DNA from: Promethearchaeota archaeon
Lineage (GTDB): Archaea > Asgardarchaeota > Lokiarchaeia > Sigyniarchaeales > SOKP01
Assembly: GCA_019058245.1 (NCBI GenBank)
Contig: JAHPZJ010000023.1
Location: forward strand, 1-64,000
DNA length: 64,000 bases
Reading direction: 5' to 3'
The translations under genes and the position numbers were made by a program. Below the pieces are notes generated by a model. It saw only the letters and a program-made list of their open reading frames with translations, was not told the origin of the DNA and did not search any database. Below are positions 15,391-18,631 of the stretch, piece after piece (the stretch's first letter is position 1; each line of letters begins with the position of its first letter).

Positions 15391-16785
15391 ATGAGTATGA
15401 CTCAGATCGTTGTCATAGGAATGGGCTATAAGTTCTGAGACTTCCTCAGTATTGGTTAAGTTGGTATTCCCATGGCAGCATTACTTGCTGATGTTGATGA
15501 TTTTAATGTCACCGGAATTCAGCGAAGATCACAAAGATCAGGGTGGAAAATCGATTGGCTCAATCAAGGAAAGAATCCTTTTGAAGGAGATGAACCAGGT
15601 TTAGATGAGTTAATTTCAAGAGTTGTTAAAAATGGGAAATTTAAAGTAACTGATAAGTATAATCTTGTAAATAAAGCAGATTATATTTTAATCGATGTGC
15701 AAACCCCTGTTGATGAAAATAAAATACCTAGGTATGAATCATTAATTGAAGTTTCTCGTAAAATCTCAAAACACTTAAAAAAAGGAGTAACAATCATTAT
15801 TGAATCCACAGTAGCTCCAGGTACTACTAATAATATAGTACAAACAATGTTAGAAGAAGGTAGTGGACTTAAAAGAGGTCAAGATTTTTATCTCGTATTT
15901 TCTTTTGAACGAGTTATGCCAGGAAAATTATTGGAATATATCACTGATTTTCCTAGAGTTATTGGAGGTGGTTGTAAGGAGGCAAATGAACGAGCAAAAT
16001 TCTTATATGGAAAGGTTGTTAAGAAAGAGCTTCAAGTTACAGATACTCTTACTGCAGAACTTACCAAATGTATTGAAAATTCATATAGAGATGTTAATAT
16101 AGCATTTGCTAATGAAATGGCTTTACTATGTGAAGATTTCGACAGAAATATATACGACATTGTTGAGTTTATAAATCACAGACATGATAGGATGATGCAT
16201 TATCCCGGTAGTGGAGTAGGAGGCCATTGTCTCACAAAGGATCCCTGGTTATTATTATACGGTTATGATAAATATACAGAAAAGAAAAACAAAGAGAAAA
16301 TAAAGCTTATACCAAACTCTAGAAATTTAAATGACTATATGCCCAATCATATGGTTGAATTGATGGAGGATATATTTAGAGAAGCTCATAAATTAGTAGA
16401 TAATATAAAAATTGTTCTTTTGGGAGTTTCTTATAAAGCAGATACTGATGATACACGAAATACTCCTACAGAAAATATTGTGAAAGTATTACAAGGACGA
16501 TATCACTCTCATAATATTATCTATATTGCTCATGACCCATATGTTAATGAGAGGGATTATAGGCTTACAGAACTTACGGATGACTTTAATGAAGCTGTTG
16601 ATAATGCTGATGTTCTTATCTTTGCAACAAATCATAGTGAATATTACAATATTGATTTAGATGATTTAAAAAAAAGAGTGAGGACACCTATTATCATTGA
16701 TGGTAGAAATATCTTTAACAAAAAATTACTACTAGAAAAAGGTTTTATTTATCGAAAAGTTGGAGAAGGTCCTGGAGTACTATAA
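15391..16785 (+). CDS. UDP-sugar (ManNAc/GlcNAc/glucose) dehydrogenase, split by a 30-nt intron (exons 15391-15429 and 15460-16785; 454 aa)
   Basis: Spliced N-terminus IVVIGMGY-VGIP restores the Rossmann GxGxxG; ESTVAPGT, GVGGHCLTKD, YKADTDDTRN. Confidence 0.9.
15430..15459 (+). other. bulge-helix-bulge/BHL mRNA intron (30 nt)
   Basis: Central helix GGCT/GGTT, bulges ATA 15428-30 and AAG 15458-60, inner hairpin CTGAG-ACTTC-CTCAG; contains in-frame TGA and TAA. Confidence 0.82.
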
Positions 16786-16817
16786 AAAAATTTAAAAAAA
16801 AATTTTGTTCTTATCTC

Positions 16818-16836
16818 TGAGTTCTTGCAGAACTCA
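16818..16836. terminator. perfect hairpin between convergent genes (terminator or 3'-UTR recoding element)
   Basis: TGAGTTCT-TGC-AGAACTCA. Confidence 0.4.
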
Positions 16837-16860
16837 AAATTAAATCCTAACATTTTTGAC

Positions 16861-17016
16861 TTAATTCTTTGAGATTTCTTTATCACTTTCGATTTTTTCA
16901 TTGCGTAGTTTTTGTAGTTTTTGAATTCTTTTATACCACATCTTAATCATATCTCAACTTGTACTGTAACACTCATCATCAAATCCAATATCTAAATAGT
17001 CAATTTCATCTTTCAT
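16861..17016 (-). CDS. small protein with in-frame UGA (candidate selenoprotein B, 51 aa)
   Basis: MKDEIDYLDIGFDDECYSTS(U)DMIKMWYKRIQKLQKLRNEK...; TGA at 16956-16954; GAAGG upstream of ATG. Confidence 0.5.
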
Positions 17017-17227
17017 GATTTTTTAACCTTCTACTTTCTGATTTTTATGGATTAAACTAAAAATAAAAGAGTAGTGATTATAAATAATTAAAATTCAATT
17101 ATATAAACTAATTTTCTATAAAACTTTTAAGACTTTTATTTATTCTCAATAAAAAATAATAAGTCATAATGTTACGTTCTCGAATTTTTTGCGGAATTCA
17201 TAGGTTTAGATTCTAAAATTTAACAAT

Positions 17228-17401
17228 CTATTCCTTGAGAGCTTTTGATTTAATTTTTAATTGTTTTCTTAATCGATATCGTTTTTTTAGATTAACTATC
17301 CCATTTATAACACCATCAATAATACCTCAACCAGTACAAGAGATTTTACTGTAATTCGAATCATTAGTGTCATTTTCCAATTTATGTTTCCATTCTGACA
17401 T
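17228..17401 (-). CDS. small protein with CxxU motif (candidate selenoprotein A, 57 aa)
   Basis: MSEWKHKLENDTNDSNYSKISCTG(U)GIIDGVINGIVNLKKRYRLRK...; TGA at 17329-17327. Confidence 0.55.
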
Positions 17402-17552
17402 AGTTTGGATACTTTATAGTTTTTTTAGATAGAAAAACAAGTAAGGAAATAAATAGATTATTATTATAATTTTAAACTTAGTTTTCAATAGATTTTTAAG
17501 AGCCTAACCTAACTGTTATTTAATTCACATTTTTTTATAAGAGCTGATATGA

Positions 17553-18233
17553 TTGCTATTCGATTATTGGGATGTAATAAAAGGATTTTTTAATTGGGTT
17601 GCTGAATCCGCAGCAATAATGATGATTTTAAGTGGTATAATGGCTATTACATGGTTGGGGTATGAACGAAAACGTAGAGGATCGTTTTTAAAAAGAAAAG
17701 CTGAAGTAGAGAAATTTGATATTACAAAGTTTCTTAGAGGATTATCATATATTGGATTGATTCTTGGGATATTTGTTGTATGGTCAGGTGCAGTTAGTCT
17801 CATCTTAAATATACCTCCTAGTTTTCAATATAGAGATGTGACTAAAAATGCAGCAAATCATTTTACTAGTATTTTCTTGATTGTTATTGGAATCACTATG
17901 TTTTTTAAGCCTATTAGTGATCTTCCACTTTCAAGTATACTAGGATTATTAGCAGGTACAGTTACAATATTTATTATCGCTTTACTTGTTCCTGATGGAG
18001 TAGTACAATTAATTGGTGGTTTTATAAATCCAAAATGGATACTTGTAATAATATTTATAATTGTGACAGTTATCGTAGGACTCATGGCTAAATTTTCTAT
18101 AGGAACATTGCAGAAAGTCTCCAAATTCTTATCTTGGCCTCCAATTGCTTTAATAATTATGATATTTTGCTTTATTCAAGGTTTTGCATTATGGATTTGG
18201 GGTGTGAGTATCTTTGGGCTTAATATTTTATAA
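17553..18233 (+). CDS. hypothetical multi-pass membrane protein
   Basis: about 6 hydrophobic segments. Confidence 0.7.
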   Translation: MLFDYWDVIKGFFNWVAESAAIMMILSGIMAITWLGYERKRRGSFLKRKAEVEKFDITKFLRGLSYIGLILGIFVVWSGAVSLILNIPPSFQYRDVTKNAANHFTSIFLIVIGITMFFKPISDLPLSSILGLLAGTVTIFIIALLVPDGVVQLIGGFINPKWILVIIFIIVTVIVGLMAKFSIGTLQKVSKFLSWPPIALIIMIFCFIQGFALWIWGVSIFGLNIL

Positions 18234-18352: not shown

Positions 18353-18631
18353 ATGGCAGGATTTAAAGAATTAAAAGAAGAAATTTCTGAGATGCGAAAG
18401 AGTATGGAAAAATTAACAGCAGAATTGCAAGAGACAAACTTAGCTATAAGAGAATCTTTAAAGATGACATCTCAAGCAATTAAAGAGGCAAGTGAAATAT
18501 TTTCAAAATCTCTTGAGGATGCTATGATGAAAATGTCTGATTTAACAATTCAGATGAATGTAAGAGATACTATTTTAAAGAATCTTGGAATTGATGGAAT
18601 GATTCCAGACTTTTTAAAGAAAAAGAAATAA
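18353..18631 (+). CDS. small coiled-coil protein
   Basis: heptad pattern, 92 aa. Confidence 0.65.
   Translation: MAGFKELKEEISEMRKSMEKLTAELQETNLAIRESLKMTSQAIKEASEIFSKSLEDAMMKMSDLTIQMNVRDTILKNLGIDGMIPDFLKKKK

Follow-up and report, generated by a model that had tools for sequence, protein, structure and literature searches.

Does an in-frame TGA codon in a very short gene of a Lokiarchaeia genome specify selenocysteine (Sec), and if so, by what signal is it recoded? The gene in question, ORF B, occupies positions 16861-17016 of the minus strand of the window (the whole 64,000-nucleotide stretch of DNA analyzed), which lies on contig C23 of an assembly totaling 3.09 Mb, with 76% completeness. 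It comprises 51 codons and a TAA stop, the latter read from the sequence at 16861-16863 (minus strand). With TGA translated as Sec (U), the product is MKDEIDYLDIGFDDECYSTSUDMIKMWYKRIQKLQKLRNEKIESDKEISKN*, and an earlier note on this DNA, made from the sequence alone, had given exactly the same translation. The in-frame TGA is codon 21 (16954-16956, minus) and is taken as Sec on the basis of TGA/Cys conservation. Its partner in a C-x4-U motif is Cys16 (16969-16971, minus), an invariant column of the alignment. The protein is thus laid out as an acidic N-terminal coil, the C16-x4-U21 motif, and one long basic amphipathic helix.

Upstream of the ATG, the SD-like GAAGG claimed in the earlier note could be located as GAAGGT at a distance of 9 nt (17026-17031, minus, read from the sequence). 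Farther 5' lies an A/T-rich, TATA-like box (17074-17095, minus), a conserved block of the TTTTATTTTTTATAA type that is kept in the intergenic regions between ORF A and ORF B of approximately 24 genomes and is inferred to be ORF B's own promoter. The tandem arrangement described in the same note is also present: a second small gene, ORF A, with a ..SCTG-U-GIIDG.. motif, precedes ORF B on the same strand, with a spacing of 214 nt between the two.

ORF B, its homologs and an upstream paralog

Of 36 genomes belonging to the same genus, 32 gave a match to ORF B in a six-frame search; in these, ORF B adjoins a homolog of ORF A and nearly always contains one in-frame TGA, which is the synteny that the earlier note had proposed to check. 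A profile search extended the distribution to 64 of 134 other genomes of a single GTDB family of Lokiarchaeia (Promethearchaeota), spanning four genera. Among the matches in genomes of this family (n = 67), 63 carry one TGA and 4 carry none, and in these 4 (G022, G030, G033, and G219) the position is occupied by Cys. Genome matches with TGA at the same column share 40-86% identity. When 41 distinct ORF B genes located beside a dehydrogenase gene were compared, the codon was TGA in 38, TGT in 2, and TGC in 1. Neither TAA nor TAG was observed at this column in any of the 67 genome matches or the 41 distinct genes. The absence of homologs, which would have refuted the initial proposal, can thus be set aside, since homologs are abundant and align TGA with either TGA or Cys. 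The earlier note had already doubted independent nonsense mutations; the recurrence of this frame with TGA at a fixed column, in 63 genome matches, is far beyond chance.

A library of 5.8 billion proteins provided further homologs, including 33 full-length ORF B entries of 45-53 residues, all unnamed except for one "hypothetical protein". The column corresponding to Sec contains Trp in 25 of these entries and Cys in the other 8, which belong to several sub-lineages, and nothing else; near-identical Sec/Cys pairs occur among them. Trp at this position results from translation of TGA under genetic code 4; most of the library entries for these proteins (P0001-P0048) derive from short contigs called under that code, a systematic artifact by which small selenoproteins are concealed. 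Across the alignment, Cys16, Sec21, and Trp27 of ORF B are invariant, apart from a single library entry (1/33) in which Cys16 is replaced by Ser.

The upstream gene, ORF A (17228-17401, minus), encodes a small selenoprotein of 57 codons with a C22-T-G-U25 motif, its in-frame TGA being codon 25 (17327-17329, minus) in a CTG-UGA context. In a profile search it was found in 108 of the 134 genomes of the GTDB family, covering ten genera and always with one TGA, and no convincing match was obtained among 265 other Asgard genomes. Outside the family, the only matches were proteins of about 100 residues from family f18 that contain ..ICTGCVSGD.. (E values of 0.004-0.007), together with one LRR protein; they resemble chance hits and were rejected. 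All 61 distinct ORF A genes sampled beside the dehydrogenase gene have TGA at the column, all 16 ORF A entries in the protein library have Trp there, and no Cys form was found in either the family genomes or the library. Sec25 and Asp29 are invariant, and MSEWK, Cys22, and Gly24 are nearly so. In a neighboring family (f2), neither ORF A nor ORF B was present in 14 genomes, including single-contig ones of 4.4 and 6.0 Mb. No cultured members are included among the genomes searched of the family that bears the two genes.

ORF A is a paralog of ORF B. In a profile-profile comparison, the two matched from end to end and their Sec positions coincided (probability 66%, E 5.7e-5), and together with the homologous RNA elements described below this match points to an old tandem duplication of a gene plus its element, an inference drawn from sequence alone. 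In a single-contig genome of the genus, a second locus (L014, G006:C1:190018-191487) contains two extra ORF B copies, each with its own B-type element, plus one A-type element. In addition, ORF A homologs at five loci (L039, L043, L117, L128, and L130) terminate at a TGA (..NLKE-TGA), the earlier TGA being the Sec codon. In these homologs, one mRNA would have to use UGA both as Sec and as a stop, approximately 100 nt apart.

A three-way-junction RNA at the 3' ends of both genes

The second part of the question concerns the signal. A SECIS-like RNA element of about 63 nt, here termed B-type, lies at 16813-16875 (minus) and overlaps the last five codons of ORF B, starting 12 nt before the TAA. 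It is predicted to form a three-way junction, in which an outer helix (AUCUC/GAGAU, 16871-16875 paired with 16813-16817, minus, from the fold) encloses two hairpins supported by both fold and covariation: hairpin 1 (16837-16867, minus), with 10 bp and the loop AAAAAUGUUAG at 16847-16857, and hairpin 2 (16818-16836, minus), with 8 bp and the loop GCA. The corresponding A-type element (17176-17242, minus) starts 9 nt before the TAG of ORF A and covers the four final codons of that gene together with its stop. The two types can be aligned and belong to the same family. A covariance model built from B-type copies (R1) scores the two elements of the window at 80.6 and 28.7 bits, respectively, the A-type element being further supported by the joint alignment and by covariation.

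The structure is well supported across the family. The B-type copy of the window folds into a Y shape with a minimum free energy of -18.0 kcal/mol (z -4.8), and a Y-shaped minimum-energy fold was obtained for 98 of 99 distinct elements versus 22 of 495 shuffled sequences, as counted with a pair-table parser. With A-type and B-type copies scored separately, 94-95% of cells in the two hairpins are paired, and the covariation scores exceed those of all 500 shuffles and all slid controls. RNAalifold recovered only hairpin 1 from the joint A and B alignment, because the hairpin 2 loops of the two types differ by one base. Family-wide, the stem of hairpin 1 measures 7-10 bp with compensatory changes, and its loop of 11-12 nt has an invariant AAA and an invariant terminal AG, while the loop of hairpin 2 is of the type YGC(R)A. 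The 5' junction reads AARR or AAGGAR in general terms and AAAG, AAGG, AUAG, GAUG, or the like in individual copies, with AUGA only occasionally, and the strand between the hairpins is UU, CUA, CUUAA, or UCCUAU. R1 matched just two sites in this genome, the A and B elements; in 26 genomes of the genus, every match fell at an A/B locus and none at the 3' end of any other gene, and two genomes without A and B (G012 and G013) yielded no matches at all.

The element is closely tied to Sec. It follows every Sec-form ORF B and every Sec-form ORF A gene, with the exception of three loci (L119, L126, and L133) in which the end of ORF A abuts the start of ORF B and a single element is left, 3' of ORF B. 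It is absent after the Cys-form ORF B genes at loci L114, L123, L136, and L070, and it is missing after three of the four Cys-form lineages, with independent loss in at least two of them. The Cys-form gene of G022 (locus L026) retains the element in a weaker form. At another locus (L072, G025:C84), where ORF B has been lost, a decayed B-type element persists 3' of ORF A, apparently as a relic left by the loss of the gene, with UAG changed to UUG in the loop and GAGAU changed to ACGAU.

How this RNA relates to known Asgard signals can be judged from two published surveys, both of which treat AUGA and GA as the core of the Asgard SECIS element (Mariotti et al. 2016, PMC4989117; Huang et al. 2024, PMC11227280). 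In the lokiSECIS described there, AUGA precedes and GA follows a stem of 9 bp, which is capped by a loop of 11 nt whose first positions are A-rich and whose last, nearly always G, usually comes after an A (PMC4989117; PMC11227280). Like the lokiSECIS, a type I eSECIS-like element, the RNA of ORF A and ORF B sits at or over the stop codon, and its hairpin 1 shares the stem length (9-10 bp), the loop of 11-12 nt, the A-rich loop start, and the AG loop end. Unlike the lokiSECIS, it has neither AUGA before the stem nor GA (or AA) after it. In copies whose hairpin 2 begins with GA, these bases form Watson-Crick pairs, with covariation from G-C to A-U. Given that these two defining features failed, the element was filed as a variant rather than a member of the lokiSECIS class. 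Although one can sketch a hidden kink-turn that uses the GA of GAGAU or the G-R of the 5' junction, it remains speculation. The canonical euryarchaeal SECIS, in which an asymmetric GAA_A bulge separates a GC-rich lower stem from an upper stem of 3 GC pairs, is not matched either: no bulge of this type is present and the helices here are AU-rich. An Rfam scan of positions 16500-17700, with E values up to 10, returned no SECIS and no other credible family.

The genome offers an internal reference. Outside the window, it contains three FrhD/VhuD-type (FrhD/FlpD) genes with two in-frame TGAs each (G000 C13:38121-38489, plus; C17:90686-91054, plus; C28:244065-244427, minus). All three are associated with a canonical AUGA...GA hairpin followed by a small hairpin (loops GCG, GUGCA, and UGC) and closed by an outer helix of 6-7 bp, so that the canonical lokiSECIS of this genome looks like a three-way junction as well. 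No description of such a form was found in the published accounts of Asgard selenoproteins that were examined. The machinery for Sec synthesis and insertion is partially represented: SepSecS scores above the cut-off (472 bits), a PSTK-like gene was detected (E 1.5e-41), and an EFSec-like ORF scores 236 bits, just below the bacterial SelB cut-off. The EFSec-like ORF (G000 C14:77365-78255, minus) and the SepSecS gene (C14:82758-84059, plus) lie 4.5 kb apart on one contig. Neither tRNA-Sec nor SelD was found in this 76%-complete assembly; tRNA-Sec is above the cut-off in 2 of 5 genomes of the genus.

On this basis, the conserved Y-shaped RNA is inferred to be the SECIS element of ORF A and ORF B. 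Without an AUGA and GA core, this function rests on correlation and resemblance, and no experiment supports it. The strongest competing explanation, although an improbable one, accepts read-through of the UGA but assigns the RNA another role, such as a terminator, a stability element, or some other regulatory structure, with UGA being decoded through a different signal or by near-cognate read-through. The missing core and the retention of the element by the Cys-form gene of G022 are compatible with such a role, as is the position of the RNA: a run of nine U residues follows the B-type element (16794-16802, minus, read from the sequence) and is inferred to be a probable transcription stop, in a region that faces the convergent dehydrogenase gene. 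However, a plain terminator would have no need of the invariant AAA...AG loop, and hairpin 1 reproduces four lokiSECIS features, while the FrhD SECIS elements of the same genome also have the Y topology and a GC-centered loop in the second hairpin. The repeated loss of the element in Cys-form lineages and its decay where ORF B has disappeared likewise argue for the SECIS assignment. Whether this is a SECIS that dispenses with the AUGA/GA kink-turn core altogether, so that the three-way junction carries the Sec signal in this Lokiarchaeia family, is a more specific proposal on which the evidence is evenly balanced.

Evidence for translation across the TGA codon

If the UGA of ORF B is read as Sec, selection should be visible as coding constraint on both sides of it, and a set of observations bears on this point. 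Variation in ORF B decreases in the order third, first, and second codon position in one frame on both sides of the TGA, and the same order holds in ORF A. The dN/dS ratio of ORF B is 0.22 upstream of the TGA (14 codons, indicating purifying selection) and 0.30 downstream, and the values for ORF A are 0.14 before and 0.36 after the codon. In the alignment, neither the frame nor the spacing between the two halves of ORF B ever varies. Of 41 ORF B genes, 31 have an SD-like motif upstream of their first ATG, at a distance of 4-20 nt.

These data bear directly on the view that the TGA is an ordinary stop, separating a 20-residue acidic peptide from a 29-residue basic helix that starts at the ATG two codons later, as coupled products or two micro-ORFs. 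TGA does also act as a regular stop here: of the 37 long frames in the window, 7 terminate with it (28 with TAA), and it has thus not been reassigned genome-wide. An ATG within eight codons past the TGA is available in 35 of 40 Sec-form ORF B genes; consequently, separate initiation of the C-terminal helix cannot be excluded from the absence of start codons alone. Nevertheless, this explanation is very unlikely. No start codon (ATG, GTG, or TTG) occurs within eight codons after the TGA in 4 of the 40 Sec-form ORF B genes and in 50 of 61 ORF A genes, and the spacing and frame of the two halves are invariant. An ordinary stop would also be expected to appear as TAA or TAG at least occasionally, in view of the dominance of TAA, yet in 63 genomes it never does, and the codon alternates only with those for Cys, a change upon which the linked RNA element is lost. 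The possibility that translation starts only at the ATG after the TGA, which the earlier note had listed as a potential refutation, is disfavored by the purifying selection upstream, the frequent SD-like motifs, and the genes that lack a later start.

The same note had left undecided whether the two genes encode small selenoproteins or peptide precursors. Sec-containing peptide precursors have been proposed in bacteria, and the small size, the acidic N-terminal part, and the tandem pairing of ORF A and ORF B would suit ribosomal peptides that are modified after translation and combine an acidic leader with a core containing Sec. This alternative has no support and is judged slightly less likely still. 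Two neighbors are conserved: in 27 of 31 loci a nucleotide-sugar dehydrogenase gene that is convergent, and in 24 of 31 a gene, divergent from ORF A, for a coiled-coil protein of 92 residues (in the window at 18353-18631, plus strand, with no Pfam family above the cut-off). No modifying enzyme, maturase, protease, or exporter is adjacent. A radical SAM gene is found about 4.5 kb away, with three unrelated genes in between. Furthermore, conservation runs over the whole length of both proteins, including the basic helix, and ORF A is often found without ORF B. The pair of small selenoproteins is the part of the original suggestion that is supported, both by the TGA/Cys homologs and by the selection upstream of the TGA. 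The dehydrogenase also bears out the placement in Lokiarchaeia that the earlier note had presumed, as its closest relatives occur in metagenome-assembled genomes mostly labeled Promethearchaeota or Promethearchaeia.

That the frame might be no gene at all, merely the remains of a pseudogene or a frame that happens to be open above a non-coding RNA, is barely credible despite its shortness, the lack of a Pfam match, and the overlap of its 3' end with structured RNA, given dN/dS ratios of 0.22-0.30 with an excess of third-position variation, retention of the frame across four genera behind an SD-like motif, and a confident helix in the AlphaFold2 model derived from the alignment.

Taken together, ORF B is considered, with a probability of roughly 80%, to be a real gene for a 51-residue selenoprotein confined to one Loki-type Asgard family, although no evidence from transcripts, ribosome profiling, proteomics, or 75Se labeling backs this reading. 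The two genes are accordingly described as a new small selenoprotein family with a variant SECIS, the SECIS function being supported only by correlation.

Relation to known selenoproteins and possible function

Seven selenoprotein families have been recognized in Asgard archaea, all through homology to families already known: SelD, FrhA/VhuU, HdrA, FrhD/VhuD, Prx-like, AhpF-N-like, and DsbA-like (PMC11227280; PMC13188914). ORF B resembles them in its in-frame UGA, its Cys homologs, its 3' RNA element, and the lineage and machinery in which it is found. Unlike these families, ORF A and ORF B are limited to one GTDB family and were found de novo, and their products are unrelated to the seven in sequence, measure only 45-57 residues, and are modeled with a single long helix rather than an enzyme fold. 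No Pfam family matches either protein, and no homology to any known family was detected. In the AlphaFold2 models, ORF B forms a coil (residues 1-20) and a helix (21-50, pLDDT 84-96 in the helix), and ORF A a short helix (4-13), a coil, and a helix (24-55). In both, the long basic amphipathic helix has Sec at its N-terminal end.

Among selenoproteins more generally, the Rdx type (SelW, SelT, and SelH) is characterized by a CxxU motif and a beta-alpha-beta, thioredoxin-like fold that spans at least some 85 residues. ORF A (CxxU) and ORF B (Cx4U) are similar in having Cys a few residues before Sec at a helix start, but their models contain only coil and helix (plus the additional short helix of ORF A), and no homology to the Rdx type was detected. 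With regard to gene arrangement, HdrA-VhuD gene pairs share one SECIS (PMC4989117). The adjacent, same-strand ORF A and ORF B are comparable, particularly in the three genomes in which they abut and keep one element after ORF B; in contrast to HdrA-VhuD, they mostly possess separate elements, and ORF B has its own promoter-like box. No small Asgard-specific selenoprotein family is reported in the two Asgard selenoproteome studies or the 2026 review that were examined, and literature searches likewise turned up no comparable small selenoproteins in archaea.

A mechanism can be outlined, most steps of which are inferred. The A/T-rich box would act as a promoter specific to ORF B, and translation would begin at the first AUG, which the SD-like motif precedes. 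UGA21 would then be decoded as Sec by the archaeal SepSecS, PSTK, and EFSec, whose genes are present and whose activity is presumed, with the three-way-junction RNA that begins in the last five codons instructing the insertion, as suggested by its correlation with Sec. In the predicted structure, Sec21 would cap the N-terminus of the helix, with the invariant Cys16 located five residues earlier in the acidic coil. The weakest step is the proposed chemistry: the Cys-Sec pair may form a reversible selenylsulfide, making the product a small redox-active or selenium/metal-handling protein. A redox role of this kind is the best guess that the motif and the single-helix model permit. The helix may dimerize, or it may bind a partner protein, a membrane, or a nucleic acid, and the amphipathic helices of ORF A and ORF B might associate with each other, uniting the Cys/Sec centers.

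Several implications follow for the study of Sec utilization in Asgard archaea. The element appears to be an undescribed form of the signal for reading UGA as Sec, no description of it having been found. In the core-less reading, the signal would consist of the outer helix, the hairpin with the A-rich loop start and AG end, and the second hairpin with its GC-centered loop; the same Y scaffold also underlies the canonical FrhD elements. Lacking AUGA and GA, such elements are overlooked by pattern searches that demand GA_[G/A]A. To our knowledge, Asgard archaea have no homolog of SBP2, and the element bears on the standing question of which part of the Asgard SECIS is recognized. The published argument for a transition from Loki-type to eukaryotic SECIS elements leans largely on the AUGA/GA core. 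With the loop, stem length, and junction topology kept and the core dropped, the element of ORF A and ORF B constitutes a natural mutant for reporter tests.

Gene prediction truncates the genes themselves at the TGA or recovers them only by wrongly applying code 4, as the library entries with Trp at the Sec column show. The Asgard survey of 2024 was homology-based (PMC11227280). Two more families of fewer than 60 residues, both lineage-specific, would show that the census of Asgard selenoproteins misses small genes, and if the core-less reading is true, the two paralogs would be the earliest example of selenoprotein families specific to Asgard archaea being found de novo.
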